From Tubulanus polymorphus (taxonomy: Eukaryota > Animalia > Nemertea): 64,000 nt of DNA. Location: positions 9,016,850-9,080,849 of the forward strand of contig NC_134029.1 of the NCBI RefSeq assembly GCF_964204645.1. The letters run 5' to 3'. The notes below the pieces were generated by a model. That model was given only the letters and a program-made list of their open reading frames with translations. It ran no database searches and was not told the origin of the DNA. A program made the translations under genes and the position numbers. Below are positions 3,916 through 40,766 of this stretch, piece after piece; the first letter of the stretch is position 1; each line of letters starts with the position of its first letter.

Positions 3916-5762
3916 ATTATATTTTCGGTGATAAAATAAAGTCAAAGGCTTTTATATATCTAAATCTCTTCAAAAAGCTACTTGGAACGAAAATAAGAAT
4001 GGAATATGTCAAATGTTGGGTACAATGTTCGCGTCAAATAATTGAACAACACACAATTGAAAAAAAAGGAAATAACATTAGCGTCCGGGTACGACACAAT
4101 ACTCGAAGAGTAACACTGGGATACTCCCGAGATTAAAGTAATCTCGTTACAGATGCCGAGAAATGTAACGAGATGACAAAACGTATTCCACTGTGTATAT
4201 TGGTGGCAATGAGCTGTTGTGACAGCTGTCTAGATTACCGGTACTCATAGCTGTTAAAGTATACGTACGCATGTGTCTTCCGTTGTCTCACGACAAAAAC
4301 CCGAGTAACGCGAATGCCCAAAATCCATTTTAAGCATTTATCCAAAGCGCTCTTCGTGTCACCTGAATGGATAGAAGTCAAAAGCGTAATCTATAGCAGC
4401 AGCAGGAGATGAATTCCATTTTCTTTCGGTTTGTCCGTTTTTCCAAGTCAAAAGAAATAAATATTTTTCCAAGTTACTATTGATAAGATACCTGAATGAC
4501 ATCACCCTCCAGCTGTTACTAAATTCAAATAGAAGAACTTTAATTGAGTTGGCCATGTTTGTGAAAAAAATGTTTGCCACCCTCCGCTTGAAATAATTGT
4601 TATTATAATATTTCGCACGTCGAATGTGCACTTTTATTGATACTCAGGAAAAATCAATTTAGAGAAGCAAATACCAAAAAGCCGATAGTTACCAATATCT
4701 TTGATTGAACTGAAAAAGGGGTGATCATATTCGATGGTTCACCACAAAAATCATATAATTGATCTCCCATATATTCGACGCATATTCAACAGTGCGCAAA
4801 AAATCACATAATTGATTTCCCATATTCGACGTATATTCGACGGTTCGCTGCGTGTAATAATTTAATTCGTTTTCCATATTCGATGGATATATAAGCCCAT
4901 TTAAGGATATCTATGGATATTCGACTGTTAAGAAAAAAGGAGGAAATCCATATTCAGAAATAATTAATAATCAATTAGCCTCAGTAAGTAAGTAATTAGC
5001 AGTCTGATCCATATCAAATTTGCAGAAATAAGAATTCAAAAAACGGCGATTTAAATGGTAGATTCAGCTCATTTTCGACAAAAATTTTCGAATTCAAACA
5101 TGTTATGCCCCGTGTGGTTGTACCTATTGTGGATTAGATAAACCACTGAAACTAAAACTGAAACTGAAAAAAAGTGTCTTATCACGAGTGATGCAGACGC
5201 GGACGCGGACGCAATCCAGGAATAGAAAAAACAGCCAGAAAAAAGAGTATGGATGATAAATGAAGCCGGTGGCTTTATTCTGGTATCAGCTTTCCGAACC
5301 TCGAAATGCAGTTCATTATTAATTGGTTGTTTGGTTTGATGGTCAGATTATCCAATCACGGCGTTTGCTAAGCCGATTGGCTAATGTATTATGTGTATGA
5401 CCTTCGTAACTGCGCACATATCCTCAAAATCACCTCTAATCACAAAGGAGTGTGTGACACGATTTCGTATGGATATCGTGTCTCGCTGTGATTGCTGCGT
5501 GACCAGGACGATGGTGAGAAATGACCTCTGCTTGACTAAACCTAATCAATTTGAAATTCGTTTCCAAACGATTCTTTGCGAACTTGATTTTGAATATTGC
5601 CTAATTTGGACAAGTCCCCCGTGACACTTTGATTCAAATATGCAAATTCCATCAATTTCAGTCAGAGCCCAGTTATGCAATCATGAAATATCCCCGAAGG
5701 TTGTTCTCCAAAGGTGGTAATAAATCTTATGACTGATCTTAACTGTTTTTTGAAAAGCTACA

Positions 5763-5887
5763 GGCCGGTTCCATAGTGAGGGCTTAGACGTTAGGCTATC
5801 TTTGTTCTATAGCGAATCTAACAATTTAAGGTCAGTCCAAAGATTGAAGACCACTTTTGGTCTTAAGTCTAGACTATGGAACCGGCC
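5763..5887. mobile_element. Short MITE with GGCCGGTTCCATAGT terminal inverted repeats (Harbinger-like)
   Basis: GGCCGGTTCCATAGT ... ACTATGGAACCGGCC inverted termini about 125 bp apart. Confidence 0.5.
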
Positions 5888-7066
5888 GGCCCAAAAAAAA
5901 GTTTTTTTTTCATAATTCGATCTAATCTATCTATAAAATCAGACTTTATAAGACTTTATAAGAAATAAGACTGGTCTTGTGTCACGCAGTACCAATAGAA
6001 AAGGATTCTGTGCACAGTGATATTATGCATAAGATGGACGAGGACACTGGAATGAACCATTCTGACAGATATGGAAGAGGACATTGTTGATATAACCCTT
6101 TCCGAATTGGCACTCTCGCGCGCTCGACTTCCTCCTGTGACCTTGCCGCAGAGGACATGGATCATTAAGGTAGCATGTTTTATTAAACGAGCTGAAAAGC
6201 AGCAAGTGACATTTATGGGAGCTTGTTATCGGAGGGTCAATACGATGTCGATATCGGCCACACTGGAGGTGCCACATCCATCCAACCGCCGGTAGCCCTT
6301 GGCAAACCAATTCCACGATGTTGCGGACGAACGACGAATTTTTGAAATTGTTTAAGCGTTGTTGGTTGGCTGCAAGTCAATATAACGGTATGCGCAAGAA
6401 ACCAATAAAGGAAAATGGTTTCATCGTGTGTTTGAACTGGTCCGGCTTTGCCGCGAGGTACACAAGGCTTATTGGATTACATCTTATTTACGAAAAGCTC
6501 TCTGGTCGAACATGTCTGATTCCGTTGAACTCACCGGAAAAAAAATCCGATATGAAACGCGCAAGGTCGCGTGGTGCCAACTTTGCCAGCGAGAACGAAT
6601 ACTAAAATCGTTGACAGGCCTACCATTCTTTGAAAGAAAAATCCTTTTCCGACGAAAGCCAGCTCATCTTGACACTTGCACGTAAGAAGTGTCTGTTATT
6701 CATGAAGGCCGGAAGTAGACATCACATACTTCCGGTTGATGTTGCTCGCTCGTAGCTATTTCAGCGTGTTTTTCACGACAGTGTGACGTCTTGAAAATAA
6801 AGACATTCTCAATGATTATGGCAATGAAGCCTAGAGCTATGGAAAAATATTCGCAATCGCAGATTTAGAAATAAATTGTCAAGTTGTATGGAAAACATAC
6901 CAAGTATCTATATGTTAATACGATGTACCAAATACTGACGCCGTGGAGAAGAAAGTCAATCATGGTATTAACTAATGCAGAGGCTATGAACGGATCTGAA
7001 AATATTAATAGGGGGCCAGACGGAGGGAGACAAAATTTCAGCCAATCATCGAGCAGGAATTGTAAT

Positions 7067-7072
7067 TATAGA
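7067..7072 (+). repeat. Left 6-bp target-site duplication (TATAGA) of the Polinton
   Basis: TATAGA immediately precedes AGTAATAG at 7073 and recurs at 23254-23259. Confidence 0.95.
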
Positions 7073-7229
7073 AGTAATAGGGATAATGGGCTTTCAAGCC
7101 AAAGGTCGAACGGTCGAGCTCGTAAAAAATGAAAAACATAAAAATAATTACAATTTCTACTTGAATTACTCGCAAAACTCATAAAAATGAAAAATAAATT
7201 CTCACACGCTCGAATTTATTTTTCATTTT
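7073..7229 (+). repeat. Left terminal inverted repeat of the Polinton
   Basis: Reverse complement of 23096-23253. Only one A-run indel and one substitution seen. Confidence 0.93.
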
Positions 7230-7391
7230 TTACTCGCTAAAAAGTAACGAGTAATTAATGAGTTGTTTGAATTGATATTTTAAACATATTTCAATATTCA
7301 TATTTGTATGAGTTAGATTTTTAAACATAAAAGTGTGAGTAAAGTGTGAGTGAAATAATTCATATTTAAAACATTGAATATTTATATTTGA

Positions 7392-8039
7392 ATGAGTTTT
7401 AATAAAAATTTTGTTATAAAAATGAAGAAAGAAGAAGAAGAACCCAACTTTAAAATCGAAATCAATGAAACCAATAAATCATTTTCACAGTTTTACATTA
7501 AAAATTATATTTCAGCAACAAATTTAGTGTCCGCAAGGTATTATAAAATTGATAACATAACTATGATTAATCAAATATCATCAAATGAAACATATTTAAT
7601 TACTGAACTAGTAGATACTTTTGATAATGGCGTTAAAAATCCTAAAATATTCAATACAGTTTTAAATTTTAAAGGAACTTTAGATGAAAACATAATTAAT
7701 ATTCTTAAAACTCCTTTCAATGAAAGAAATGATGATATAATACTTTCAAAAGATTACAATGATTTGATTAACTTAAGAATTGAAAAAAGACAATTATTTT
7801 ATTTCAATTTTGATAATAAACAAATTATCTATAATGAAAATTCATCAAATATTGGAATTCAATGTGAATTAGATAATAATAATTCTTATAAAGATATTGG
7901 AATTCAATGTAATTTTGATGATGAAATTGTTGCGCCTAAATATAATCCTAATGAAAGCGTTTTATGTAATTGTGGAAAATATTATACTCGCAGCAATAAA
8001 TCACACCATCTTAAATCAAAATATCATAACACATATTAA
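7392..8039 (+). pseudogene. Probable N-terminal part of the pPolB ORF with a C-terminal zinc-finger-like motif, truncated at a deletion junction
   Basis: First ORF inside the left TIR. Ends in CNCGKYYTRSNKSHHLKSKYH and abuts the polymerase C-terminal fragment out of frame at ~8030. Assignment to pPolB is positional inference. Confidence 0.55.
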
Positions 8040-8551
8040 AGATAAAAACTGATAACATAACAGATGATTTAAAAACATTAAAACACCATTTTGATTTTAG
8101 TAATTATCCAAAAAATCATGAATTGTTTAGCAATGATAATAAAAAAGTTCCCGGTAAATTCAAAGATGAATTAGGTGGTGAAGAAATGATAGAGTTCATA
8201 GGTATTAGATCTAAAATGTATAGTTATAAAACTAAAACTCATGAATCAAAGAAATTGAAAGGAATTACCAAAAGCGTTGTTGAAAAGAATATTCATTTCA
8301 AAGATTACATCAATTGTATATTTAATGAAGAAGTTAGAAAACATAAGATGAAATGTTTAAGATCTGAAGATCATGAAATGTATATTGAAGAGATAGAGAA
8401 GATAAGTCTAAACCCATTTGATGATAAAAGATATATTTTAGATGATGGAATCCACACAGTCGCCTATGGTTGCAATTTAGATGAATATATAAAATTCAAA
8501 AGAGAAGAAACAAAAGAAAATGAGATTATGAAAAGGATTCTAGCGTGTTAA
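8030..8551 (+). pseudogene. polB: Protein-primed family B DNA polymerase (pPolB), C-terminal fragment only
   Basis: Open frame from 8030 reads ILKIKTDNITDDLK..FDFSNYPKNH..NKKVPGKFKDE..EFIGIRSKMYSY..KLKGI..FDDKRYILDDGIHTVAYG, the Polinton pPolB segment that directly follows YxDTDS. The exonuclease and motifs A, B and C are absent. Confidence 0.92.
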
Positions 8552-8579
8552 TCAATTTCAATAAAAATTTGTATAATAA

Positions 8580-8921
8580 ATGGAGAGTAAACAAGTACAC
8601 AGTGAATTCTTAGATAGAATTAAAGATACTTCAAGCGTCAAATCTGTAGATTATAAATTTAAAAAACTAACTGAGTTAACAATTCACAAGAAATATTTAA
8701 TTACTAACATTGAAACAATTACTAATAAATATGGAGATAAATTAGTAATTCATTTAGAATATGAAGGATTAAAAGGAAATAAATATAAATTCAGAACTTA
8801 TTTACCAGATAGATTTCATAGATTATCAAGTGAAGATTTAGAAGAATTATGTTCTGGAGATTTCTATTTCGTATACAAAGGTAAGAATGAAAAAGGGCAC
8901 CATGAAATAGATTTCGAATAA
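8580..8921 (+). CDS. Polinton hypothetical protein, 113 aa (possible OB-fold/ssDNA-binding)
   Basis: Intact ORF with TAAATG start directly after pPolB. The KYG..LV and YLPDRF pattern looks like Polinton-associated small proteins. The fold is a guess. Confidence 0.65.
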   Translation: MESKQVHSEFLDRIKDTSSVKSVDYKFKKLTELTIHKKYLITNIETITNKYGDKLVIHLEYEGLKGNKYKFRTYLPDRFHRLSSEDLEELCSGDFYFVYKGKNEKGHHEIDFE

Positions 8922-8938
8922 GAAAATATGTAAAATAA

Positions 8939-9694
8939 ATGGTGGAATTAAAAGAATACAGAATATTTGTTGATTCTAGAAAACTTACAAATTATAAATC
9001 ACATAATTTATTAGTACAATTAGATAGAGAATTCAAAAATTGTGTTGATTTAAAATTAGTTAATATAAGTTTATGTAATTCTTTTTACAATGTATCGGAT
9101 AAAACTTTTGAACATAGAGGGTTTATGATTTATATGAGAAATAAAGATAAATGGTTTCATATATTTTTAAAACCAGGATTATATAATTTAGAATCATTAG
9201 CGCAGGAAATTAATAGAAGAGCTCGGTTGAAAATCGGGGGCACTTCTGTATTTGAAATTAAATTTAATAAAATTGATAGTACTAATAAAATTAAAATAAA
9301 GGTATCTAATGAACAACATAAATTTATGGTAAACAAACCAATGGCTAAAATGTTAGGAATTAAACCGCTTACAGTTACTGGAAACGCAGAAGGCAGCTCA
9401 AATATAATACCTTTTACACACTTTTATATTTATTGCAATTTAATCGAGCCTACAAAAACTTTCGAAGCAACTAAAGAAACAATTTGTAATTCAAGTATAC
9501 TAAATATTTTACCGCTAAAAAATGTTAAACAATTTGGAACTCAAATAAATTATAATTTAACAGAATGTGATTTTAAACCTTGCATTCCTAAATTTAATAA
9601 TTTTAAATTAGAAATAAGAAATCATAATGGATACTTAATTGATTTGAATAACTTTCCTGTAATTTATGAATTAGTTATAAGATGTAAAGAGTAA
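8939..9694 (+). CDS. Minor capsid protein (penton, single jelly-roll)
   Basis: 251 aa with IFVDS, NSFYNV, LKPGLYNLESLAQEIN, FYIYCNLIE, SSILNILP and LEIRNHNGYLIDLNN..VIYELVIR, the typical Polinton penton pattern. Confidence 0.85.
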   Translation: MVELKEYRIFVDSRKLTNYKSHNLLVQLDREFKNCVDLKLVNISLCNSFYNVSDKTFEHRGFMIYMRNKDKWFHIFLKPGLYNLESLAQEINRRARLKIGGTSVFEIKFNKIDSTNKIKIKVSNEQHKFMVNKPMAKMLGIKPLTVTGNAEGSSNIIPFTHFYIYCNLIEPTKTFEATKETICNSSILNILPLKNVKQFGTQINYNLTECDFKPCIPKFNNFKLEIRNHNGYLIDLNNFPVIYELVIRCKE

Positions 9695-9710
9695 TTTTTC
9701 ACTTATATAA

Positions 9711-9950
9711 ATGAATATAACTGTTGGACCGAGTATATGTTTTGGGTTTGATTTTAAACGTGAGAAAGAAATGAAATTTAACATTAATGATGTAATAACA
9801 CATATCAAAAATATTGCATTTTCTAATGAAACAACATTTGAGTATGAAACAACAATAGATAAAGAAACTTTAAATGTAGAAAAGATTACTGAGTCTTTAA
9901 GATTTTACGAATTAGATGAAGATTTTATCATCGATATATTAAAAAAATAA
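9711..9950 (+). CDS. Polinton hypothetical protein, 79 aa
   Basis: ORF in the co-oriented gene run, with T-tract/TAAATG start. Confidence 0.55.
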   Translation: MNITVGPSICFGFDFKREKEMKFNINDVITHIKNIAFSNETTFEYETTIDKETLNVEKITESLRFYELDEDFIIDILKK

Positions 9951-10057
9951 TAATTGAAATATATGATAATCATAAAACTAGTAATGAAATAAATGTTGAA
10001 TTAATCATAAATAAGATAACTAAATATTTTGATGATAGTAATTTTTTTGATTAATAA

Positions 10058-10279
10058 ATGAGTGATAATAAGTGGATAATAACTGGATTATATAATGGAG
10101 CATTACTATCAGTTGGAACGGTTGGTTATTCAATGGTATTAAAAAAAGTATTCAAAATGGGAAGTGTTAATGTTGATAGATTTGATATAAATGATATTTT
10201 AAAATTAACATTAGCAGTTACTTTATCTAATTTAACAATTGATTATTTGGAAAAACAAAAATATATTCCTCCCATATAA
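10058..10279 (+). CDS. Small hydrophobic/amphipathic protein, 73 aa
   Basis: T-tract/TAAATG start; hydrophobic helices GALLSVGTVGYSMVL and ILKLTLAVTLSNL. Confidence 0.7.
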   Translation: MSDNKWIITGLYNGALLSVGTVGYSMVLKKVFKMGSVNVDRFDINDILKLTLAVTLSNLTIDYLEKQKYIPPI

Positions 10280-10302
10280 ATGCATAATTTTTTGCTAAAT
10301 AA

Positions 10303-10725
10303 ATGGCTTCTGCAATTATAACTATTATAGGATCGGCAATCGTTAACGCTTTAGCATTTACTGGTGGTGGATATTTATTTAAACACATTGATAAAAATAG
10401 TTCATTAGGAGAACAAAGAAGACATAACTTAGCGTTAGAGAAATACAATAAAGCTGCAGAAGAATATAGAGAAAAGAGGCAAAACTATATGGATTACATC
10501 AATAAAGAATTATATGATCAGAAGATTTCACATAGAGATTTTCAATCAGTTGATGATGCAATGAGTTTATATAACGCAGTAACAAATAAAGAAAAATTAC
10601 ATCTATACAAACCTAAATTATCAGATTATTATACCCCAAGTAAAGAACAACAGAAATATGAAATAATTTGGATTTTAGGTGGAACAGTTATTGTTATATT
10701 TGTTGCTTATAAGTTTACTAATTAG
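10303..10725 (+). CDS. Predicted membrane protein, 140 aa
   Basis: N-terminal hydrophobic segment MASAIITIIGSAIVNALAFTGGGYLF, a coiled-coil-like middle and a C-terminal TM (IIWILGGTVIVIFVAY). Confidence 0.8.
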   Translation: MASAIITIIGSAIVNALAFTGGGYLFKHIDKNSSLGEQRRHNLALEKYNKAAEEYREKRQNYMDYINKELYDQKISHRDFQSVDDAMSLYNAVTNKEKLHLYKPKLSDYYTPSKEQQKYEIIWILGGTVIVIFVAYKFTN

Positions 10726-10744
10726 TAATTTTTTTTCTAAATAA

Positions 10745-11179
10745 ATGGAAGATAAAGTTGATAGTATTGATATTATTCCTCATGATATAAATAAAACTAA
10801 ATTAAAAACATATTTAGAAAAACAAATATTAGAATTTGAAAGTGACTTAAAGATAAAAAAGAAAAAATATTTAAAAAGTAAAATTATATATTATCTGATT
10901 ATAAGTGGTTCGGTTACAATTAGTTCTGTAATAACATTTCTAGCAATATTCAGTCCATTAACACCTTTAGCTATATCAATTGGTGTATTAGGATTAAGTT
11001 CAAGTGTTTTAACTGGTATAAGTTCAAAATTAAATATAAAAAGTAATAAAGAAAAAATTAAAACTAATATAAAAGAAATTAATAAATTAAAGAACACACT
11101 AGATTATATAATAAGTTTAAATGGCCATATAACAGTTGAAGAACAAGATAAATTATTAAAAGAATTAATAAATTATTAA
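10745..11179 (+). CDS. Predicted two-TM hairpin membrane protein, 144 aa
   Basis: IIYYLIISGSVTISSVITFLAIFSPLTPLAISIGVLGLSSSVLTGI flanked by Lys-rich coiled segments. Confidence 0.78.
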   Translation: MEDKVDSIDIIPHDINKTKLKTYLEKQILEFESDLKIKKKKYLKSKIIYYLIISGSVTISSVITFLAIFSPLTPLAISIGVLGLSSSVLTGISSKLNIKSNKEKIKTNIKEINKLKNTLDYIISLNGHITVEEQDKLLKELINY

Positions 11180-11195
11180 TTTTTTAATTATATAA

Positions 11196-12584
11196 ATGGT
11201 AGATAGTTTTCCAAAAGCTTTCCAATATAATAAATCAATTAAATATAATATTCCAGCAATAGATTTTAATAAAGATATTACATATAGAAATGAAGTTTTA
11301 GATTCATTAACTAATTTAGAAATTTATGTTACTGAAACTAATAATTTTAATGCAAAGATGGAAAATATATTTCATGTATATTTAATTAATTTTAAAAAAT
11401 TGAAAGATGAAAAACAATGGTTATTAAAATCTAATATGAAGTATTGGCAAAATCAATTAAATTTTGCTGTTTATTGTGCAACAACAGGATGTGGAATTAG
11501 TTGGAATGATCATTTGAATAATTCTAAATATAAATTAATTCAAAGTTTATTTAGATTTCATACATACTTTCAAATCAGAATAATATTAAATGAATTAGAG
11601 TGCGCTTTACCAGGATCTAGATATTTTAAAGAATTAGATAATAATATTAATTTATCAAAGTTTTATAAGATTTGTAATGAATTTAATATAGATATAAATA
11701 ATTCTGATTTTAGAACAAAAACTGGAACAATAAGATCACTTCCTTGCCCTAAAAAGATTGCAGAATATTGTGCACTTCCCATACCATCTAATAGTTTTTA
11801 TAATATCTATAATAAAAAATTAGGTTATGGTAAAATAGAAACAAAGGATTTAGAAACATTAAATTTCAATAAATTACCAAAATTTTATGATAATTTAAAA
11901 CAAGAAAACAATAATGGTTGGGTTTATTTCATTTTAGAAAATAGTGAAGGTTTTACTAAATCAGGTATAGAAAGAATAAATCAATCTATTAGAACTTATT
12001 TGATTTGTATTCTAGGATCACAAGTTGAAACAAGATCACCGATAATTGGAAATTTGAATACATCATTCGATACACAAAAACAATTTAAAGTTTTATTTGA
12101 AGATTCAATTCATAATGATAAAAATAGATCGATTCCAGAAAACATTATAAGATATCAAAATTATTTAGATAAATCTCATGTAAGACTTAATTATTGTATA
12201 GGCCCTAATCTATTAATTATTTCTAATGATTTAGTATTAAAGATGGGAAACATAATTGGTTATAATAATCTAATTAAAACCGCAACAATAAATAATTCAT
12301 TTGGATTGAATGATATAAATAAAAAGATTATTACTGCTCCAAAATTAATGGAAGGTGAAAAAAATAAAAAACACATTCAATCAACTGAAACTAAAACTAA
12401 GAATATTAAATTAAATAATGATTCTAAAATAAAAGATTATAATACATCAGAAGATATAAAAACTGATAAAATTCAACATGATATAATTAAACTAAATGAT
12501 GATAATAAATCCCATGAAAATACTAAATTAGCTATAACTTGTATAGGAATTGTAATCGGAGGAATATTATATTTTAAATTTTAA
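11196..12584 (+). CDS. Uncharacterised 462-aa protein with C-terminal membrane anchor
   Basis: Long intact ORF with YWQNQLNFAVYCATTGCGIS and FRFHTYFQIR blocks; terminal TM LAITCIGIVIGGILYF. Confidence 0.82.
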   Translation: MVDSFPKAFQYNKSIKYNIPAIDFNKDITYRNEVLDSLTNLEIYVTETNNFNAKMENIFHVYLINFKKLKDEKQWLLKSNMKYWQNQLNFAVYCATTGCGISWNDHLNNSKYKLIQSLFRFHTYFQIRIILNELECALPGSRYFKELDNNINLSKFYKICNEFNIDINNSDFRTKTGTIRSLPCPKKIAEYCALPIPSNSFYNIYNKKLGYGKIETKDLETLNFNKLPKFYDNLKQENNNGWVYFILENSEGFTKSGIERINQSIRTYLICILGSQVETRSPIIGNLNTSFDTQKQFKVLFEDSIHNDKNRSIPENIIRYQNYLDKSHVRLNYCIGPNLLIISNDLVLKMGNIIGYNNLIKTATINNSFGLNDINKKIITAPKLMEGEKNKKHIQSTETKTKNIKLNNDSKIKDYNTSEDIKTDKIQHDIIKLNDDNKSHENTKLAITCIGIVIGGILYFKF

Positions 12585-12600
12585 TTTTTTTATTATGTAA

Positions 12601-14330
12601 ATGGCAGAAGGTGTAGAAGATATTCCATTTGATGACATGGGAAATAATAATGAAGGATATATTGATGATGATTATAATGATACAGAAACTAATATTGATA
12701 ATGATGATGAATCAGCATATAATACTAATTTAGGTGAAGATGATGATTATGATGATGATGATCCCGAATTACGTGAAAGATTAAATAAATATTTAAAAGC
12801 TCCTGAAATTGGTAGAATTTCAACTAGAAGAGAAAGAAAAGAATTTATGGAACTATTAGTAAAACAACAAGAAAAAAATCCTGATAAACCTATGGAATTA
12901 TCTAAAATGAAATCTAGAGTAACAGATACAATTGTTAACGAATTATTACCAACAGTTGTAATAGATGAAATTGATTCAGAAGGTGTTGTAGAACAAATTT
13001 TTAAAGATGACCCATATTTCACAAATAATTTAGAATTTAAAAATGATTCGTGGTATTATAATGTTAATTTAAATAACAAAATTGTATCAATTCAATTATC
13101 TAAAATGGGTCAAGAAAATATTTATGAACCTGAAATGCGAGCAACATCTACAATTGAAGGTTCAAAAGGTGGTAGAGAATTTCTTAGAATTATATGGAAT
13201 GCACTCGATAGAATAAATAAAAAAGAACCAATTCCTAATATTGATATAAACAAATATTCACCATTTAAAAATCCATTTAAAAATCCAAATCCTACTGATT
13301 TTGATCCAGAAATGGAAGAGAATAGAAATCGATTAGATAGATTGAGATCTTCAACACCCGAAACATCGAGAAGAGACACTCAACCAATTGATAATTATTC
13401 AAGTCAATTACAATTAGAAAAACAAATTGATAGATTAAGAGATTCAGAAGAACTGATGAATAGTATATCAGATACATCTGGTTCTGAAACTGGAATAAAT
13501 CGACTGCAATATTTACTAGAAAAAGGATTTCTTAATTTAACTGATGAAGAATTAGAAGCATTTCCTGAACAAATACGTAGAGAAATTAAAGGTATACAAG
13601 TATCAGCTGATGAAATTGCTAATATTAAGATGAGATTTTCTAAAATAACCATGTTAGAAAAAGAATTAGTTAATGTAGATGAAGAATTAAAACAATTAGA
13701 ATTAAATAGAGATCATCAAGTAGTTTATGAAGCTGATTATGAAAGCAGAAAGTTAGCTTTAGTAAAAGAAATAGATGATTTAGAATATAACAAAATATTA
13801 TATATATATATATAAAATTACAAAAAGAAGAAAGAGATATATTATTAAAATCATATGATCTTAATCATATTAAAAAATTAAAAGTTATTTTTAAAGATTT
13901 GTTGATTAAACCAGATTCTGAAATATCATTAAAAGACAGAATAAGATTATTATTTAAATTAGAAGGTATAACAATTCTTTCAATTGTAACAGCTGTAACT
14001 ATGGTATTTACAACAATTGGTTTAGCAATATCAAATGCTTTGAAATCTACTCCTACTCCCACTCCCAATAAACCGGATAAACCTCCAGGTAATAATTCTA
14101 TACAAGATAAAGTTAAGGATGGTTTAAAGAAATTAGCAAAATATTTATGGGAACTATCAAAGAAATCTGCTGCAGCTTTACCAGGAGTTATTGCTTCAAT
14201 TGTTGGTTTTATATTGAAATCTGCAGGAAACATTATTAACTTTGCTGCTGAACATATTATTTTATTTTTAATTACAGTTGTAAGTGCTATTATTTTTGGG
14301 TTAGTGAATATGATATCAAAAAATAAATAA
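12601..14330 (+). pseudogene. Large acidic/coiled-coil multi-TM protein (~575 aa), frameshifted at a (TA)n run
   Basis: ORF 12601-13815 ends inside the TA run at ~13799-13814, and the 13899-14330 frame is open back through that run. Removing one TA joins them. TMs: GITILSIVTAVTMVFTTIGLAI and IILFLITVVSAIIFGLV. Confidence 0.8.
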
Positions 14331-14352
14331 TTAATTTTTTTTTGTTAAATAA

Positions 14353-15600
14353 ATGAGTGGGAGTTATATAAGTCCTTCGAAGAATCATAGAATATCTAAT
14401 GCTATTAAAGCAGAAAGATCACATCATATAATTACTCATAACCCTTCAAATATTAATCCCGATGAAACTTTATATGTTAGAATTCCTAGATTAACACAAA
14501 ATACTTTTTATGTTCCAAATAGTATTTATTTATCAGCTCATATAAAAGTAATCGGTAATAATAATAATTATGTTGTTGATAATGTTGGAAGATATTTGAT
14601 TAAAAAGTTAACAATAAAGATTGGTCCGGAAACGGTTTTCTCATTAGATGATTATAATTTATTTATGCATTATAAAGATTTATGGTTAACTAAAGAAAAT
14701 AGAAATAATATGATATTTCAGGGTATTCAATCAGAAAACCAAAATAAATTAAGATCAGAAGCTAATAGCGCAATATTAACTAATGATGTAGATAAATTGA
14801 TAAAAAGTATATATGGAAGTAAATATAAAATTCCATTAGACTTTGAATTGATAAATAATAATGCACCTTTATATAAATACGCAATTCAAGAAGACGTTAT
14901 ATTTGAAATAACATTTGCTCCTGTAAATGAAATTGTATTATCTAGCGTTGTTAAAGATATGAGTTATAAATTATCGAATATATGTTTAGAATATGATACA
15001 GTAACTGATGAAAATATTTCAAGTATAATTCAAACCCAATATAATCAAGGATTTTCATTATTATATGATTATATTGATAAATTTAAAACTGTAACTATTA
15101 ATGCAAATGATGAAATAATTAATGAGAATATTAACTTTCCTAGAAGATCTATTAAAGGTATATTAATATTTTTTACCATTGGAACGTATACTAATGGTGC
15201 AATAAATGTTGACAATTATTATAATCCTGAAATAACAAAAGTAGAAATAACTATCGAAGGAATAGCAAATAAAATATTTTGTCAAGGAATGAGAATGATT
15301 CTTCAATGGCCAGAAATTAGAAAACATTTTATGAATGAAAAAATAAAATCATCTGAAGATTGTAACATTAATCAAATTGATTATTATACCGGTAATAAAT
15401 ATGCATTATGGTTAGATTTTAGAACAACTGAAGATAATTCATTACATGGTTCTGGGAAAAAACTACAAAATACAAAAGATGGAATACAATTATTCATGAC
15501 AAAGAAAAAGGGAATCAAAAATTTTAAAATGCACATTTATATTATATCTGACGCGCAATTAAATATTGTAAATTCTCAATTAGATAGTGTTATGTATTAA
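14353..15600 (+). CDS. Major capsid protein (double jelly-roll)
   Basis: 415-aa beta-rich ORF with NPSNINPDETLYVRIP, LIKKLTIKIG, YKIPLDF, YKLSNICLEYD, RSIKGILIFF and YALWLDFR blocks. Size and pattern match Polinton/PLV MCPs. Confidence 0.85.
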   Translation: MSGSYISPSKNHRISNAIKAERSHHIITHNPSNINPDETLYVRIPRLTQNTFYVPNSIYLSAHIKVIGNNNNYVVDNVGRYLIKKLTIKIGPETVFSLDDYNLFMHYKDLWLTKENRNNMIFQGIQSENQNKLRSEANSAILTNDVDKLIKSIYGSKYKIPLDFELINNNAPLYKYAIQEDVIFEITFAPVNEIVLSSVVKDMSYKLSNICLEYDTVTDENISSIIQTQYNQGFSLLYDYIDKFKTVTINANDEIINENINFPRRSIKGILIFFTIGTYTNGAINVDNYYNPEITKVEITIEGIANKIFCQGMRMILQWPEIRKHFMNEKIKSSEDCNINQIDYYTGNKYALWLDFRTTEDNSLHGSGKKLQNTKDGIQLFMTKKKGIKNFKMHIYIISDAQLNIVNSQLDSVMY

Positions 15601-15632
15601 AATTTTAACTTTAATAAAAATATATATAATAA

Positions 15633-16880
15633 ATGGAAGGTGGAATATATGAAATACAATCTCCAAGTGAAATGATATCAGATATATATTATATATTACC
15701 TTATGATGAATACAGTAAGTATTTTGGAGATTACTTTAATCAATTCAAATATAGAATAAGTAAAATAGATAAGAATATTGAAACTAAAATAGAAGATAAT
15801 ATTGAACCTAAAATAGAAGATAAGAATGAAACTAAAATAGAAGATAAGAATGATATTGAATATAAAATAGAAGATAATATTGAACCTAAAATAGAAGATA
15901 AGAATGATATTGAATATAAAATAGAAGATAAGAATGATATTGAATATAAAATAGAAGATGTAACAGGATATGTATCTTATAATATACCCTCTACAACATA
16001 TGATATTGAATCAAAAAAGATAAATGAAAAATATTGTGACGTATGTAAACAGTATAAAAGTTATAAGAATTGGGCAACTCATCTTAATTCACTCAAGCAT
16101 AAGAAAAATAAGAATAAGATTTTAAATGAATTGAATAATGATAGTGAAATTGATAATGATAATGTTAAAGAAGATAAATATTGTGAAGAATGTGATAAAT
16201 ATATAAGTCGTAGTAATTTTTCAAAGCATAAATTAACACAGATACATTTGGATAATATAGAAAGAAATATATGTGAAAAGTGTAATGTTGTTGTATTACC
16301 TAAAGATAGAATTAAACATGATAATTCTTTTGAACATACAATAAAAGCTGCTGATTTAAATATCCTTTATAGAGTACCAAGTGTATTTTTTGATATCGAA
16401 AATAATGATCATAGGAAATTATATAGATCAATTTTTATCGATTATGTAAGAAATAATCCAAAACAAGTATTATCAGATCTAAAAACTCGTCGGATGATTA
16501 TAAAAATTGATCTAAATAATTATTGGGGTATATATTATTTCATAAAATTTAAAAATATAGATTTTTTAACAGAATTGAAAAAAGTTGCTGCTAATGATAA
16601 TTATGATAATAAAAGTGATAACTTTGATGAAATAATTCAATACTACAGTTATGAAGATTTTTCACAGGATGTTATAAATAAAATAAGAAATGAAGCAAAA
16701 AATAAATATAAAAATATAAGTGGAGACAAATTAAACCAATATATTTATTTAACTTATGAATTCTGGGTTAAGGGTTTGAATGGTAATGGTTATCATTTTA
16801 AACTATTAGGTGAAAGAAGATCAGAAGAATTAAGAGATGCATGGAGCAAATTGTTTTCAGAATTAGAATCAGAAAAGTAA
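15633..16880 (+). CDS. Triple C2H2 (U1/matrin-like) zinc-finger protein with internal KIEDKN repeats, 415 aa
   Basis: Fingers CDVC..H..H, CEEC..H..H and CEKC..H..H; tandem 21-27-nt coding repeats at ~15760-15960. Confidence 0.78.
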   Translation: MEGGIYEIQSPSEMISDIYYILPYDEYSKYFGDYFNQFKYRISKIDKNIETKIEDNIEPKIEDKNETKIEDKNDIEYKIEDNIEPKIEDKNDIEYKIEDKNDIEYKIEDVTGYVSYNIPSTTYDIESKKINEKYCDVCKQYKSYKNWATHLNSLKHKKNKNKILNELNNDSEIDNDNVKEDKYCEECDKYISRSNFSKHKLTQIHLDNIERNICEKCNVVVLPKDRIKHDNSFEHTIKAADLNILYRVPSVFFDIENNDHRKLYRSIFIDYVRNNPKQVLSDLKTRRMIIKIDLNNYWGIYYFIKFKNIDFLTELKKVAANDNYDNKSDNFDEIIQYYSYEDFSQDVINKIRNEAKNKYKNISGDKLNQYIYLTYEFWVKGLNGNGYHFKLLGERRSEELRDAWSKLFSELESEK

Positions 16881-16907
16881 TTTAAAATATGAATATAATA
16901 CCCTTTG

Positions 16908-17472
16908 TGTCTTTATTGTCTTTAGTAGTTTAGTACTTTTAGTACATAAAGAATAAATCTTTATTTTATTAGTAGTGAATAAAATTATTTTTAAAACTAC
17001 TAAACTACTAAAGACAATAAAGACATAAATATATATATAACACTGTTTCAATAATTATATTTATTCATCTGATGGATTTTATATATTACTGTTTCAATAA
17101 TTAAATCTATTTATCACACATATTTATTATATATATCATAGATTTATCATTTATAAAAATTATTTATATATTTTATTTTTCTAAGTACTAATTAAATAAA
17201 GATTTATTCTTTATGTACTAAAAGTACTAAAAGTACTAAAGATAATAAAGACATAACAAAACATATATAGATGTAATAAATATCATAGATTTATTTATCT
17301 CACATATTTATTATATATATTTGATTCAGTAATGATAAATCTATGTGTGTTTGTTATGTCTTTATTATCTTTAGTAGTTTAGTAGTTCTATTTTATTTTA
17401 TTCACTACTAATAAAATAAAGATTTATTCTTTATGTACTAAAAGTACTAAACTACTAAAGATAATAAAGACA
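16908..17472. repeat. Nested inverted repeats between the convergent gene blocks
   Basis: Unit 16908-17025 has 28-bp self-complementary arms (TGTCTTTATTGTCTTTAGTAGTTTAGTA). 17357-17472 is an inverted copy of the whole unit, and a partial copy lies at ~17194-17260. Confidence 0.85.
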
Positions 17473-17530
17473 TTAGGGGAGGTATATAATACATATCTAA
17501 TACATATCTAATACATAGGTATACAAATAG

Positions 17531-18145
17531 TTATTTTATAAATTTATATTCATATGGAAATTGTAATCTCATAAGTAATTTGGAACCTTTATTATTCTTT
17601 AATTTATTCATATATTCATCATGTAATTCAGTAGGTATAATTTGATTTTCTTCTAATGATTGTTGCATAGATTTTCTATCTTTGTTGTAGAATAAAACTA
17701 GAAATCTTATATTCTCTCTAAAGTCTTTCACAATTGAATTATATTTCTGATTTAAAACCCATGTTGTTATCCCAAAATGTCTACCAGAGAAAGCTAAATA
17801 ACATAACTCACTTTCTCTAATTTTAGAATCATGTACATTTGCGCAATCATCAATAATAAATAATGTATTAGATCCTTTATAAATATCTAATGCAATTTTT
17901 ATACAATTATCTAAATTATCTTTTACTGTTTTAGAATTTAATATAATAAACTTTTTATCTTTAAAAACTATATCTCTATTATACGTTTCATTCATTTCAT
18001 AAGTTGGGCAGAATAATATTATATTATCAAAATGATTCTGATAAATAGTTTCTAATAAATCTAATATGAAGTGTGTTTTACTACAATTTGTAACTCCAGT
18101 AACTAACATATTATGTGGTTCAAATATAAACAAATCTTTATTCAT
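17531..18145 (-). CDS. FtsK/HerA (A32-like) genome-packaging ATPase with Walker A variant GVTNCSKT
   Basis: hhhhGxxxxSKT, Walker B LFIIDD, and SGRHFGITTWVLNQ (GRH...Q motif). Confidence 0.9.
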   Translation of the reverse strand: MNKDLFIFEPHNMLVTGVTNCSKTHFILDLLETIYQNHFDNIILFCPTYEMNETYNRDIVFKDKKFIILNSKTVKDNLDNCIKIALDIYKGSNTLFIIDDCANVHDSKIRESELCYLAFSGRHFGITTWVLNQKYNSIVKDFRENIRFLVLFYNKDRKSMQQSLEENQIIPTELHDEYMNKLKNNKGSKLLMRLQFPYEYKFIK

Positions 18146-19223
18146 TTATTCTTTTAATTTTACTAGATAAAATCCATTCATTAAATTTATCATCTTATCC
18201 TTTATATTTCACCAAAGAATACTTTTTTCCTTTAAGAGTTTTAGTTTTCAATACCTTTTCTATTTTGTATTCTATTTCATCTGGATTTGGTACTAATGAT
18301 AATTCTTGTTCATAAAAATAACCTAATATTTCTTCATCTTTTAAATCAAACAATTTATAAACAAATGGTTTAGTTAATATTATCTTTTTAATTTTAAATA
18401 TTTCTTCTGTAAAATTAGGGGTATAACCTTTATAAAATGTTTTTCGATATTTAGAAATTCTAACATGTTGTCCTATTTTGAATTTAGGTTCTCCGAAATC
18501 ATGTGTAACAAATGCACCATATAAATTATTCCAAACTATTTCTGAATTTTCTTCTTTTCTAGCTTGTATAGGTTTCATATTTATAGAACTATGTTTAGAA
18601 TTATTATAACCTTTAACTAAATCATCTAATACATCGATATATTTATATGTTTCATTAGCGGTGAAATATTTCCACATTCTAGTTTTCAATGTTTTATTAA
18701 ATCTTTCTATAACAGATGCTTTTTTATCTGAATGTGTTGAAAAATATTCTACATCGTTATCAGTTAATAGTTTTTTAAAATGTTTGTTATAAAATTCTTT
18801 ACCTTCATCAAATTGTATTTTATCTGGGATAGCTTCTTTAAATATTAATTTGAAAGAATTTGTAACTTCTATACCAGTTTTATTTTTAATCGGGATACTC
18901 CATGCGTATCTACTGAATATATCTATAACATTTAGTATCCAAAAATATCCTTTGTTATATTCTTCTAAGTTTTTCATATCAATTAAATCAGCTTGCCATT
19001 GTTGGTCAATATATGAAACCATTACTTTTCTTGTTAAATATTTTTTATCCATTTTCTTGTGGATTTGATATGTTGGTTGATTTTGTAACCATGATTTTAA
19101 TTCACTTTATTTTATATTACTATTATCAGATTTAATTTTATCCCATAATTCTGAAACGTTAGAATATGATACTTCACTTTCTGGGTTGTAATATAACGCT
19201 CTTAAATATTGTTCTTTTTTCAT
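18138..19223 (-). pseudogene. int: Retroviral-type (rve) integrase with C-terminal chromodomain and two in-frame TAA stops
   Basis: Frame reads MKKEQYLRALYYNP...NIK*SELKSWLQ...WQADLIDM...IDIFSRYAW...FDEGKEF...IERFNKTLK...YKIEKVL..KYKG*DDKFNEW. Stops are at 19107-19109 and 18195-18197. Confidence 0.93.
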
Positions 19224-19229
19224 CTTATT

Positions 19230-19655
19230 TTAATCCATTAATAATAATCTTGGTTTATTTTCAATGACTTTATCATTTGACTTATTTTCTGGTATGATAG
19301 GTTTACTGTCTGTACACGGATAACTAAGTTTCCGATTGTCATTGGAATCATCTTTATCGTAAGATTTGAATTTTGATTTATATATTACACCGGATAATAT
19401 AATAACTGTTACTAATCCAATTGTAATATATAATTTATAATTACTTCCAGCATTAGAAGAATTAGATGGATTATCATTTGAATCAATACCACCGTGTGGG
19501 TGCTGTACGGCACCATCAGATAAAGTCTGTGATTCATTTATATCAGTTAATTTCTTTTTCTTAGCTTTTTTTAATTCTGATGATCTTTTACCTAATTCTC
19601 TTGCCCATTTAATTTGTTTCTCGGATCTAGCCTTTTTCTTAACTCCATCACTCAT
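19230..19655 (-). CDS. Single-TM protein with basic N-terminus, 141 aa
   Basis: TAAATG start, Lys/Arg-rich head, TM LYITIGLVTVIILSGVIY. Confidence 0.75.
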   Translation of the reverse strand: MSDGVKKKARSEKQIKWARELGKRSSELKKAKKKKLTDINESQTLSDGAVQHPHGGIDSNDNPSNSSNAGSNYKLYITIGLVTVIILSGVIYKSKFKSYDKDDSNDNRKLSYPCTDSKPIIPENKSNDKVIENKPRLLLMD

Positions 19656-19664
19656 TTATTTTAG

Positions 19665-20231
19665 TTAATTTTGTTCTGATTCATTTTCTGTTTCACTGTT
19701 TGGTTGTAGTACATCTGTTTCGTTCTTACCTGATTTATATTCCATAGGTTTGATGTTCGAAAATGTAATGACACCAGTAGAAATTAATGTCATAACCGAT
19801 CCTAATTGAAATGAAGCATAACCGACCCATTTTTGTAATTCAGTCATAACTAAATAGTCATTTTTCAAATCATTATATAATTTATTTTCATCATCAATTG
19901 GTATTAACTGGTTACATAATTTTGAATAACATTTGACAATACCATCTGAAATAGAATCATTTATTCTAGCTAATCGAGCTTCTTCATAAATCTTAAAATA
20001 TTTTATTACTTTATCGGGTTTCATAGCATCTAATTCTTGAAAAGTAATAGTCTTAGTTAAAAACTCTTTAGTTTTTCCACCGGCAATCAATAGTTCTATA
20101 TGGTGCTTACAATATAAATAGTATTCATAATCTATAGAATTAGAAACAACTGTATCTTTATTATCACTAATACCTAAATCATCTAATGTCTTTTCAATAT
20201 CAATATTATTCTTACTCAATTTCTTTGACAT
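19665..20231 (-). CDS. Polinton hypothetical protein with a hydrophobic C-proximal segment, 188 aa
   Basis: T-tract/TAAATG start; segment WVGYASFQLGSVMTLISTGVITF. Confidence 0.75.
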   Translation of the reverse strand: MSKKLSKNNIDIEKTLDDLGISDNKDTVVSNSIDYEYYLYCKHHIELLIAGGKTKEFLTKTITFQELDAMKPDKVIKYFKIYEEARLARINDSISDGIVKCYSKLCNQLIPIDDENKLYNDLKNDYLVMTELQKWVGYASFQLGSVMTLISTGVITFSNIKPMEYKSGKNETDVLQPNSETENESEQN

Positions 20232-20645
20232 TTATATTAGAGGAAAAAAGCAAAAAAAATATTATAAGTATTCTTCAAATGATACTAGTATCTCTTTAGG
20301 TTAATACTAAATTGACTAGGTTAGTTAAAGTTAAAGAATTTCTATTCAAATCTATTCAAAATCTATTCAATCTAATGTCAATTAGAATTACCAAAAGAAA
20401 ATATTGAAAAATATAATAGAATTCACTAGCTAGTTGAAGTTATTGTTTTTTTATTATATTTTATTTAAATTAGGATTTAGATTATCTCACTACTATTGTC
20501 TATCTATTAGGAGCAGTAATTATAACTGTCCAGATAAGTCATTTCGGATCCTCGATAATAAATCCTCAAACTGAAAATAAATTCAAAGAAACGACTGGTG
20601 GAAATCTTATTTCATAAACACATATATTTATTATACAAATTTTAG

Positions 20646-21006
20646 CGATCAATAGTAGAACAATGGAGAACAATAGAAATGCGGTTCAATCGGACCGGTT
20701 ATTGCGCAATACACAGTTATATTCTTATTCTGTAAACTACAACATTCAAACATAGAAATGTAACCAATCAATATTGAGCAGCTGTTTCAGTCAACAACGA
20801 TCAATAATAGAACAATGGAGAACAATAGAAATGCGGTCCAATAGGACCGGTTATTGCGCAATACACAGTTAACAGTAAACAATACAATACAGAACAACCG
20901 CCGCCATTAACAACGATCAATAATAGAACAATGGAGAACAATAGAAATGCGGTTCAATAGGACCGGTTATTGCGCAATATTTAGTTAACAGTAAACAATA
21001 CAATAT
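20646..21006. repeat. Three direct repeats (~75-100 bp) in the non-coding region, putative enhancer
   Basis: CGATCAATARTAGAACAATGGAGAACAATAGAAATGCGGT...GGACCGGTTATTGCGCAATA at 20646, 20798 and 20914. Confidence 0.85.
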
Positions 21007-21075
21007 TAAAACAGATATATACAATCGAGATTACATTTTTGATATCTATATTACAAAGACCTTCAGTGTTATAAT

Positions 21076-21542
21076 TTATAATTTTGTCCAGAATTCTTTA
21101 ATTACTGGATTGTTTCCAATCATTTCTTCAATTTCTGGTAAATATCTGACTACTTCACTAAATGCTAATCCTAATATTTTGAATTTTTCATATTTTATTA
21201 ATCTACCTACTCTTCTCAGTTTTCTTTCAAAACCGGCATTGATATCTCCACTCATTTTCTTAGTTTTCGATTATTTGAGTCCCAACAGCAATTTAAGTCG
21301 CGTTGCTGGTAATTTTGGTAATTGTAGTTCGCGCGGTAATTGTTTATTATGTATTACATCACTCAGAATTTTCACCATTTCTTGATGATAGTCCAAATGT
21401 TCTTATAATTTTGTGAAGTTTGTTCGTCAATTACGAGAGTTTCATCCTCCATTTCTATTGATTCCTGTGTTTCACTATCCAGTAGCAATCGTTCCTCATC
21501 CGTTGGTTGGCTTAGAATTTCTGGTTGATCTTTGTGTTCCAT
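21076..21542 (-). pseudogene. Disrupted Polinton ORF (frameshift and nonsense codons)
   Basis: MEHKDQPEILSQ... from 21542 shifts into a frame ..HQEMVKILSD..LGLK*SKTKKMSG..KEFWTKL*. Confidence 0.45.
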
Positions 21543-21869
21543 TTTAATCTAAAAGATATCGTGAAAATGAATTACTGTACTTAAATATGTTTAAAGGTTT
21601 CCCTACTTCATAATAACTACAAAAAACGGTACTTACATTTAGATTTAGAACTGTAAACTGTGTTTTGAGAGAGAATATCCAATACGTACTATGTATGTGA
21701 AAGTTGATTTCTAACTGCCGACGTGGCGCACGTTCAACCAAACTAATTATTTCTGCACAGATGTTCTTTATGATGAAGTTAATTAATTCTTTAGAATTGA
21801 AAACAAGATATATTTGGCAACATATGTTTTAGTAGTAAGCAAAAGCTATGTATTATATACATACAAAGC

Positions 21870-22574
21870 TCAAATAGAATTGCCAGCTTTCTTACCACTG
21901 ATCAAAACCTCAGAATGCGGTTGATTCTGTGAAATACTATTCCATAATTCAACAAATGTCTTTGCTTTATCCAGTTGATCTAAATATAACTGTAAATCTA
22001 GTTTATTGGATTTAATAATGTTTTCCTTCTTTTCTAAAGGTCTTAGATTCTTCCAATTCCAAATAAGTTTTTTATTGTATTCATCATTCATGTTAAATTT
22101 AGATATTGGTAACACATGATCAATATGAAAGTATTCACCATAATTATCTATATTCATTTTATCATCGAATTGATATATTATCCATGATTTTAAGAATTCA
22201 TCTGAACAACCCAATAAATTAGATAGTGTTTTTGAACGCGTTTCTTTGTTGAATAATTTTGATACTTTAGATCTCAAACATTGTTTCATTTTAAAATTAA
22301 AATCTGTTTGATATCTTTCTTTATGATAATTTCTATTATACACTTTAATATGTTCTAAATGATTTTCTTTCCATTGCTTATTTTCATCTTTGCGTGTTTC
22401 GGTATTATTTCTATAATTTTGTTTGTCACTTAGTTTACTACAAGTTTTACAATAACTTTGCTTACCATCTTTCTGAGTTTTATAATTATAATATTCCGAG
22501 AGTTGTTTATTTATTTTACATTTAGAACATTTCTTATTGTTTATATTTATAGCTTGTGATTGTTCCGGCTCCAT
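21870..22574 (-). CDS. HNH endonuclease with N-terminal C4 zinc ribbon (giant-virus/phage type)
   Basis: KCSKC..CKTC, LLGCS..FLKSWI..QF, NYGEYFHIDHVLP and NWKNLRPL..KENIIKSNK. Confidence 0.85.
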   Translation of the reverse strand: MEPEQSQAININNKKCSKCKINKQLSEYYNYKTQKDGKQSYCKTCSKLSDKQNYRNNTETRKDENKQWKENHLEHIKVYNRNYHKERYQTDFNFKMKQCLRSKVSKLFNKETRSKTLSNLLGCSDEFLKSWIIYQFDDKMNIDNYGEYFHIDHVLPISKFNMNDEYNKKLIWNWKNLRPLEKKENIIKSNKLDLQLYLDQLDKAKTFVELWNSISQNQPHSEVLISGKKAGNSI

Positions 22575-22651
22575 TTATTATACATATTTTTATTAAAATT
22601 GATTAACATTTTAGAATCCTCTTCCATTTCTTCGACCAACGTCATCCTTTT

Positions 22652-22903
22652 TCATTCCTCGCTGCTTTTGATAAGTTGTTTCGATTCCTTGATATCAAAT
22701 TCCTCAACGTATTGTTCATTATTTGGATCAGTGTTCCATAATTCAATAAATTTCTTTCCTTTTGTTAACTGTTCTGAATATAACTGTAAATATTCTAATT
22801 TCAATTTATTCTCTAAATGTGTTTTAGTTTTATTGTGTCTTGCTTTTTGAGACTTATCTATATTTATCTTACATGTTGGACAGTAGTACTTATTTGCTTC
22901 CAT
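22652..22903 (-). CDS. Small C2H2 zinc-finger protein, 83 aa
   Basis: YCPTCKINIDKSQKARHNKTKTH; preceded by the same upstream motif as 22574, 8580 and 15633. Confidence 0.7.
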   Translation of the reverse strand: MEANKYYCPTCKINIDKSQKARHNKTKTHLENKLKLEYLQLYSEQLTKGKKFIELWNTDPNNEQYVEEFDIKESKQLIKSSEE

Positions 22904-22985
22904 TTTAATACTAAATTTTTTATTAAAATTGATTTTAGAAGTTCAATGATTTAAATGTTATTCATATATATATGAATATTTTAAG

Positions 22986-23253
22986 AGTAATAGGGATAAT
23001 GGGCTTTCAAGCTAAAGGTTGAACGGGCGGGTGAGTAAAAATGAAAAAACATAAAAATAATAACAATTTCTACTTGAATTAGGAGTGAAACTCATAAAAT
23101 GAAAAATAAATTCGAGCGTGTGAGAATTTATTTTTCATTTTTATGAGTTTTGCGAGTAATTCAAGTAGAAATTGTTATTATTTTTATGTTTTTTCATTTT
23201 TTACGAGCTCGACCGTTCGACCTTTGGCTTGAAAGCCCATTATCCCTATTACT
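22986..23253. repeat. 268-bp imperfect terminal palindrome that includes the right TIR (23096-23253)
   Basis: 22986 restarts AGTAATAGGGATAATGGGCTTTCAAG. The arms fold around the loop GAGCGTGTGA at ~23114-23123. Confidence 0.92.
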
Positions 23254-23259
23254 TATAGA
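23254..23259 (+). repeat. Right 6-bp target-site duplication (TATAGA)
   Basis: Follows ...CCCTATTACT and is identical to 7067-7072. Confidence 0.95.

Positions 23260-33939: not shown

Positions 33940-40766
<6,827 letters not shown>

Follow-up and report, generated by a model that had tools for sequence, protein, structure and literature searches.

Mavirus and the endogenous mavirus-like elements (EMALEs) of Cafeteria are integrated, carry an rve integrase and bear promoter motifs that match the late promoter of their helper virus, a matching that is documented in the parts of the source at hand (10.1101/2025.10.09.676808). In animals, small elements known as entomopoxvirus-associated Polinton-like viruses (PLVs) have been proposed as poxvirus parasites (Barth et al. 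2024, PMC11296320, main text), and vertebrate Mavericks have been put forward as virophages against iridoviruses (PMC8097293). The idea of an animal Maverick as a virophage is thus already in print, with the same hypothesis of activation by a giant virus, and in the accessible passages of that source it is argued from host range, with no promoter-motif evidence. The yeast linear plasmids pGKL1/2 carry a poxvirus-type TAAAN initiator on a linear replicon (excerpts of PMC6211774). The element described here lies in a 64,000-nucleotide stretch of the Tubulanus polymorphus genome (contig NC_134029.1, positions 9,016,850 to 9,080,849; hereafter the window) and is a partly decayed, integrated Polinton/Maverick in an animal genome. 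It resembles other animal Polintons (Polintoviricetes) in its terminal inverted repeats, target duplication, rve integrase, double-jelly-roll capsid, A32 ATPase and likely polymerase remnant, and differs from them in its fixed TAAATG starts with a T at position -9, a trait limited to one capsid clade among 80 related loci. Because most of its genes start with a poxvirus-late-type T-tract and TAAATG, reliance on the RNA polymerase of a large DNA virus is likely, and such reliance would make this Polinton a candidate virophage of animals.

Mavirus and the EMALEs have a protist host, a mimivirus-family helper, another motif and another capsid class, and their dependence is known by experiment, whereas here we infer it. 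The pGKL1/2 plasmids are not integrated, lack a capsid and encode their polymerase on pGKL2. The entomopoxvirus-associated PLVs were co-sequenced from occlusion bodies, their capsids are described as highly diverged from known groups, and the main text of that paper, as available, contains no mention of promoter, motif, TAAAT or transcription (PMC11296320). Nor are promoters or motifs mentioned in the portion consulted of a 2026 survey (10.64898/2026.10.13.758929), and a search for literature on TAAATG promoters in Polintons, with subscription journals and supplements outside its coverage, returned none.

Fourteen open reading frames (ORFs) in the window open with TAAATG exactly where the original prediction had placed them, and its count of eight upstream T-runs is also exact, since in 8 of the 14 a run of 5-9 T ends 5-9 nt before TAAAT. 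These starts make up 14 of the 19 non-overlapping ORFs of at least 70 aa, against 15 of 232 out-of-frame internal ATGs (Fisher p 2e-11). Over the 40 nt that precede each of these ORFs, the local frequency of the TAA triplet is 57/722, giving a binomial p of 3e-12 for the 14/19, and TAA precedes 58 of 1852 ATGs in the host flanks. The five ORFs that lack TAAATG are internal methionines of broken genes (8186, 19052), an antisense ORF (13865-14233) and TAAAA(A)TG variants (7421, 22903). The rule used to call ORFs, the first ATG after a stop, is biased toward in-frame TAA, and the same rule was therefore applied to control loci. Checked against both the out-of-frame ATGs and the Polinton controls, TAAATG is not accounted for by AT content.

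The trait follows capsid phylogeny. The capsid has 926 homologues, and 80 of 179 confirmed metagenome loci were fetched. The clade set consisted of the window and 21 loci with 20-44% GC, near-duplicates L002 and L013 being left out, and the control set of 11 AT-rich relatives outside the clade with 26-39% GC, again after leaving out three near-duplicates. TAAATG starts were found at 94 of 115 ORFs across the 22 clade loci, and at 45 of 54 in the 13 of these with at least 30% GC, but at 1 of 42 in the AT-rich relatives and at 7 of 330 across all 54 other loci. When 68 of the 81 capsid rows (those shorter than 300 aa being left out) were placed in a quick maximum-likelihood tree, all 18 TAAATG-labelled rows fell in a single 22-row clade (Shimodaira-Hasegawa-like approximate likelihood ratio test, SH-aLRT, 100). 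The motif is retained across capsids of 33-76% identity, the distant end being ~33-37%, and lineage-specific accessory genes, such as a deoxynucleoside kinase, also bear the motif.

The sequence upstream of these starts is equally constrained. Across 95 gene starts, T occupies 84%, 74% and 72% of the positions 9, 10 and 11 nt before TAAAT. The -9 T is present at 80 of 95 starts (39 of 42 in close loci, 41 of 53 in distant loci) and at 47 of the 57 starts that have no same-strand gene ending upstream. Further upstream, A peaks at 13-15 nt, and G+C falls to 0-4% at -12 to -10. By comparison, 154 non-gene TAAATG sites have a flat upstream profile, with T at -10 in 49 of 154 against 70 of 95 gene starts. 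In nine head-to-head gene pairs the motif is found on both strands, 14-30 nt apart.

This arrangement resembles that of vaccinia intermediate and late promoters. In vaccinia, late promoters have TAAAT(G) overlapping the start codon and a conserved T lying 10 nt upstream; the intermediate type is A-rich upstream and ends in TAAA, which is not always followed by TG (PMC11980589, PMC5294985). The clade loci with the motif have TAAAT followed by G over the start codon, a T ~10 nt upstream within a T-rich core, a short spacer, and an A-rich variant ending in TAAA. The T peak lies 9 nt ahead of TAAAT when counted from its T, or 10 nt when counted from its first A, and so agrees with the vaccinia spacing to within 1 nt by counting rule. 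Unlike in vaccinia, the motif occurs here in an element that is integrated in host DNA and has no RNA polymerase of its own. Motif, spacing and conservation in the clade are a real and well-supported sequence feature.

Two classes of upstream sequence can be distinguished, a T-rich class before capsid and membrane genes, and an A-rich class (A-class), TTTAATAAAAA, before zinc-finger, HNH-like and minor-capsid-like genes. In the close clade the class tracks the gene, with T-rich sequence before the capsid at 5 of 5 loci, and AATAAAAA-type sequence before the 415-aa zinc-finger-like gene at 3 of 3 and before the minor-capsid candidate at 2 of 2; the class before the 113-aa and HNH-like genes differs between loci. 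Within the window, 5 of 6 TT(T/C)AATAAAA(A/T) sites stand 8-9 nt before a TAAA(A)ATG gene start. The mimivirus/iridovirus early motif AAAATTGA is not enriched upstream, its relaxed pattern being found at 2 forward and 4 reverse of 114. Depletion of TTTTTNT (observed/expected 0.35-0.51) was dropped as evidence because runs of five T are depleted in general.

The features of the element are as follows.

7073-23253: whole element, 16,181 bp, Polinton/Maverick between TATAGA duplications
7067-7072, + strand: target-site duplication TATAGA, left 6-bp copy, identical to the hexamer at 23254-23259
7073-7229, + strand: left terminal inverted repeat, ~157 bp, first bases AGT
7421-8039, + strand: 205-aa ORF, function unassigned; A-class upstream motif TTTAATAAAAA-N8-TAAAAATG; ORF finder start 7392
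8042-8551, + strand: putative polymerase C-terminal remnant, 169 aa, no Pfam match
8580-8921, + strand: 113-aa ORF; TAAATG, A-class
8939-9694, + strand: probable minor capsid protein, 251 aa; TAAATG, A-rich upstream; kept in 6 clade loci
9711-9950, + strand: 79-aa ORF; TAAATG and T-run; counterpart in L003 126 aa; seemingly broken near 9935-9950
10058-10279, + strand: 73-aa hydrophobic ORF; TAAATG and T-run
10303-10725, + strand: 140-aa conserved ORF; TAAATG and T-run; 10 clade homologues
10745-11179, + strand: 144-aa predicted two-helix membrane protein; TAAATG and T-run; weak SLATT-like match
11196-12584, + strand: 462-aa conserved Polinton protein; TAAATG and T-run; 23 homologues among fetched loci
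12601-14330, + strand: 404-aa and 109-aa ORFs; TAAATG and T-run at 12601
14353-15600, + strand: major capsid protein, double jelly roll, 415 aa; T9 run and TAAATG
15633-16880, + strand: 415-aa ORF with zinc-finger-like repeats; TAAATG, A-class
16885-17500, no strand: AT-rich fold-back non-coding region
17531-18145, - strand: A32-type packaging ATPase; TAAATG; Pox_A32 E 5e-11
18195-19223, - strand: rve integrase, broken; rve E 5.5e-9, above cut-off; frame break between 19223 and 19052, premature stop at 18195
19230-19655, - strand: 141-aa ORF; TAAATG
19665-20231, - strand: 188-aa conserved ORF; TAAATG and T-run
21870-22574, - strand: 234-aa HNH-endonuclease-like ORF; TAAATG, A-class; 42 homologues, one with HNH family PF01844
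22652-22903, - strand: 83-aa zinc-finger ORF; A-class motif with TAAAATG
23096-23253, - strand: right terminal inverted repeat
23254-23259, + strand: target-site duplication TATAGA, right copy

A 6-bp target-site duplication is a feature of Polintons/Mavericks, and TATAGA stands on both sides of the element, together with terminal inverted repeats (arms of ~157 bp, 96-99% complementary), an rve integrase, a double-jelly-roll capsid and an A32 ATPase. The structure model of the major capsid protein (predicted local distance difference test, pLDDT, 87.5) has the PBCV-1 capsid as its top Foldseek match (E 9e-17), with the mavirus capsid at rank 39 and 11% identity. The 251-aa minor capsid candidate has a weak DUF5901 match under the cut-off, and the 462-aa protein has no atlas, PDB-sequence or fold match. 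The product of 8042-8551, which we take to be pPolB from its motifs, aligns over 148 aa with the C-terminal end of a Polinton-like protein of 1253 aa in locus L135 (34% identity, E 3e-17), itself without a polymerase Pfam match. The HNH label of the ORF at 21870-22574 is in part our presumption from a motif. Decay is evident from the likely polymerase, cut to 169 aa, from the integrase, broken at two places where intact relatives have 359-362 aa, and from two further genes that are apparently split; the 404-aa and 109-aa ORFs are likely a single gene broken at an (AT)n run near 13800. No cysteine protease family was found among the 19 window ORFs scanned, in a copy that is deleted in part and degraded at 20300-21800, no RNA polymerase family among the 19 window and 34 relative proteins scanned, the loci being fragments, and no tRNA genes. 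GC drops to ~24% in the element region (7-23 kb). In DNA run X1, 15,753 contigs match the region at no less than 90%. Depth reaches 4,676 and 3,416 in two exact pieces near 8.4-8.6 kb, against 45 for a flank contig; although depth is not equal to copy number, this indicates that the element belongs to a multi-copy family in host DNA.

Several further observations concern the structure of the element and its surroundings. The fold-back region at 16885-17500, with 93-nt inverted arms (z -20 against 20 shuffles), separates the converging gene blocks; it might be a miniature element inserted there, or have a part in replication. The A-class promoter regions at 8530-8599 and 22555-22624, which precede genes unrelated to each other, share 83% of 70 nt when one of them is inverted, a likeness that duplication of a promoter cassette would produce. 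At the right end (22978-23201) lies an additional copy of the terminal repeat, in direct orientation relative to the left repeat, making a long palindrome, and a 116-nt repeat occurs three times at 20610-20993, in the degraded, GC-richer part of the element. Matches were found in 6 of 30 scanned frames of the host flank, three of them exons of a glycine-receptor-like Cys-loop channel and three of gamma-glutamyltranspeptidase, from which it follows that the host is an animal. The gamma-glutamyltranspeptidase exons are on the + strand and the three channel exons on the - strand (28890-32011 and 35047-55352), which suggests a tandem channel cluster. Host repeats at 28381-28785, 37952-38449, 39630-39921 and 43649-43743 are a 30-nt array, an AT microsatellite, a 60-nt array and a GTTAA repeat.

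Relatives of the element offer observations of their own. L135 (positions 1-9034), a second Polinton-like lineage with an integrase and ATPase, has 7 of 7 TAAATG starts, one of them forced by the search pattern, and for this reason the trait may have arisen more than once; the L135 integrase has an N-terminal protease-like region with a weak viral cysteine protease match (E 0.0014). The close relative L003 carries the deoxynucleoside kinase gene with T-run and TAAATG at 10340-10981, and protein P0197 apparently fuses an HNH-like part to a deoxynucleoside kinase. L057, a clade member that has no TAAATG, shows TATA-like words before its genes and, at 5082-5579, a weak match resembling the poxvirus late transcription factor VLTF3 (E 3.6e-5, under the cut-off). 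In eight AT-rich loci outside the clade (L016, L019, L020, L021, L023, L027, L043 and L056) TA(A)n stands right before the ATG, possibly another initiator type.

The identity of a helper can be approached through the same motif. Viral contigs were chosen with a T-tract-TAAATGG pattern (80 of 120 with flanks). In these 80, TAAATG stood at a median of 7% of the remaining starts, and L261 ranked first with 5 of 11; in L085, 4 of 6 starts have TAAATG, none forced by the search pattern. Both contigs carry MSV199-family genes, and L261 also an RNase III and an NIF phosphatase; on this gene content we take the two to be invertebrate iridovirus. Their -9 T, present at 5 of 9 unforced starts, fits less well than the poxvirus description, in a small sample. 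Iridoviruses pass through a nuclear phase, and their viral polymerase is thought to act late (consulted parts of PMC5294985). Scans of the viral contig collection with the element's capsid and ATPase found no relatives. A likely helper would be a poxvirus-like virus or an invertebrate iridovirus.

The original prediction held that the element is transcribed by the polymerase of a co-infecting pox-like or other nucleocytoplasmic large DNA virus and called it virophage-like. The promoter part of that claim stands up by sequence, as the motif is no AT artefact, is conserved in the clade, has its T 9-11 nt upstream and occurs in head-to-head pairs; "pox-like" is not the sole option, because about half of the starts in iridovirus-like contigs are TAAATG as well. 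The promoter matches the published poxvirus late architecture and may be shared with a helper of this host. The element is of decayed Polinton/Maverick type, and its identity as a mavirus-type virophage is putative. Of two supporting arguments, the gaps between intact same-strand neighbours are indeed short, 9-32 nt, and larger only at broken genes and non-coding stretches, but this is not specific because motif-less relatives are equally compact; the absence of introns holds in that the ORFs are uninterrupted, the sole basis of the claim.

The strongest competing explanation is nuclear transcription of the element by host RNA polymerase II, with T-tract-TAAATG a lineage-specific compact core promoter or translation-start context that resembles the poxvirus one. 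Motif-less relatives share the gene set and the tight spacing, coral polintoviruses are reported as expressed (10.1101/2023.10.06.561300, in part), and the family is multi-copy in host DNA runs. However, the fixed -9 T agrees with poxvirus spacing, and a TATA-like element abutting the ATG cannot be the TATA box of that gene. The T at -3 runs counter to the purine of the metazoan Kozak context. Undepleted AATAAA, at 4.8 per kb of coding strand, is awkward for nuclear transcripts, although the controls are not clearly depleted either. We regard transcription by the host polymerase as unlikely. Less probable still, and quite doubtful in our judgement, is that the promoters are a relic of a lineage that formerly depended on a cytoplasmic DNA virus and is in its present host mainly a transposon or decaying. 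The window copy has lost most of its polymerase and has a broken integrase, and three clade members lack the motif, as such a history would have it, but the persistence of the motif across 33-76% capsid identity and on non-homologous accessory genes implies recent selection.

A companion element that persists in the cytoplasm and has a poxvirus-related polymerase of its own might also provide transcription, in the way that pGKL2 does for pGKL1, with no lytic helper. Yeast linear plasmids are protein-primed replicons, which counts in favour of a companion; to our knowledge none such exists in animals, and an RNA polymerase family is absent from the 53 scanned proteins, a weak argument since the loci are fragments. 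Although the initiator of the yeast plasmids is TAAAN and slippage there makes a 5' poly(A) (PMC6211774, in part), we consider such a companion very improbable. Finally, the notion that the motif arises incidentally from 3'-end or translation signals belonging to the upstream gene (AATAAA overlap, stop-start coupling or a trans-splicing polypyrimidine tract), to which we give almost no weight, draws on AATAAATG being read at 39 of 95 starts and on T-runs that often directly follow the upstream stop codon, but is largely refuted by the 56 of 95 starts that are not AATAAA, by TAA being the upstream stop codon in only 3 of 95, by AG standing near 24 of 95 gene starts, a lower share than the 89 of 154 for non-gene TAAATG, and by persistence of the motif and -9 T in the 57 starts without an upstream same-strand gene and in the 9 head-to-head pairs.

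A number of results weigh against transcription by a helper polymerase. The clade and control groups were defined after motif counts were first seen, and one clade is one evolutionary origin, so that locus counts are not independent and locus-level p-values are overstated. Clade members L015, L057 and L061 have TAAATG at 0 of 21 starts, bringing the clade to 94 of 136 overall, and the AT-rich controls, with AAA directly before the ATG in 27 of 42, are possibly not neutral. The integrase start at 19223 has AATAAG upstream in place of TAA. Motif-less relatives have 34 equally short head-to-head pairs in 26 loci, some starts perhaps miscalled. Internal AATAAA is not depleted in the clade and not clearly so in the controls, and the test does not tell the two groups apart. 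No helper lineage was found through the L003 kinase (4 close proteins, one 37% contig), the HNH-like gene (42 proteins) or the 415-aa zinc-finger-like gene (7 weak matches). A highly multi-copy family is more simply explained by nuclear transposition, and hallmark genes of coral polintoviruses, whatever their clade and helper status may be, are reported as expressed in colony transcriptomes (10.1101/2023.10.06.561300).

With these points taken into account, we consider it somewhat probable, from the promoter sequences, that a large DNA virus co-infecting the host supplies the RNA polymerase that transcribes the element's genes, in place of polymerase II of the host. By analogy with vaccinia, the helper polymerase would initiate in the AAA of TAAAT and yield near-leaderless mRNAs with a slippage-made 5' poly(A), and the two upstream classes may correspond to intermediate-like and late-like timing. 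Intact family members, if they behave as mavirus does, would stay silent until helper infection and then replicate, package and re-integrate, and the window copy would depend on polymerase and integrase supplied by another copy. It is possible, though we advance it only tentatively, that a widespread clade of animal Polintons consists of integrated virophages tied to the intermediate/late programme of an undescribed invertebrate poxvirus-like virus, kept as a multi-copy, inducible antiviral reservoir.

How animal Polintons are expressed, and whether they may be virophages, is a long-standing question, for which a conserved, correctly spaced poxvirus-type promoter in one clade provides a sequence handle, with predictions for start sites, for 5' poly(A) leaders, for two timing classes and for the type of helper. 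Dependence on a helper would also point toward unknown pox-like or iridovirus helpers in invertebrates, and, if animal Polintons do serve as a virophage reservoir, promoter motifs would predict the helper virus of each of their lineages.

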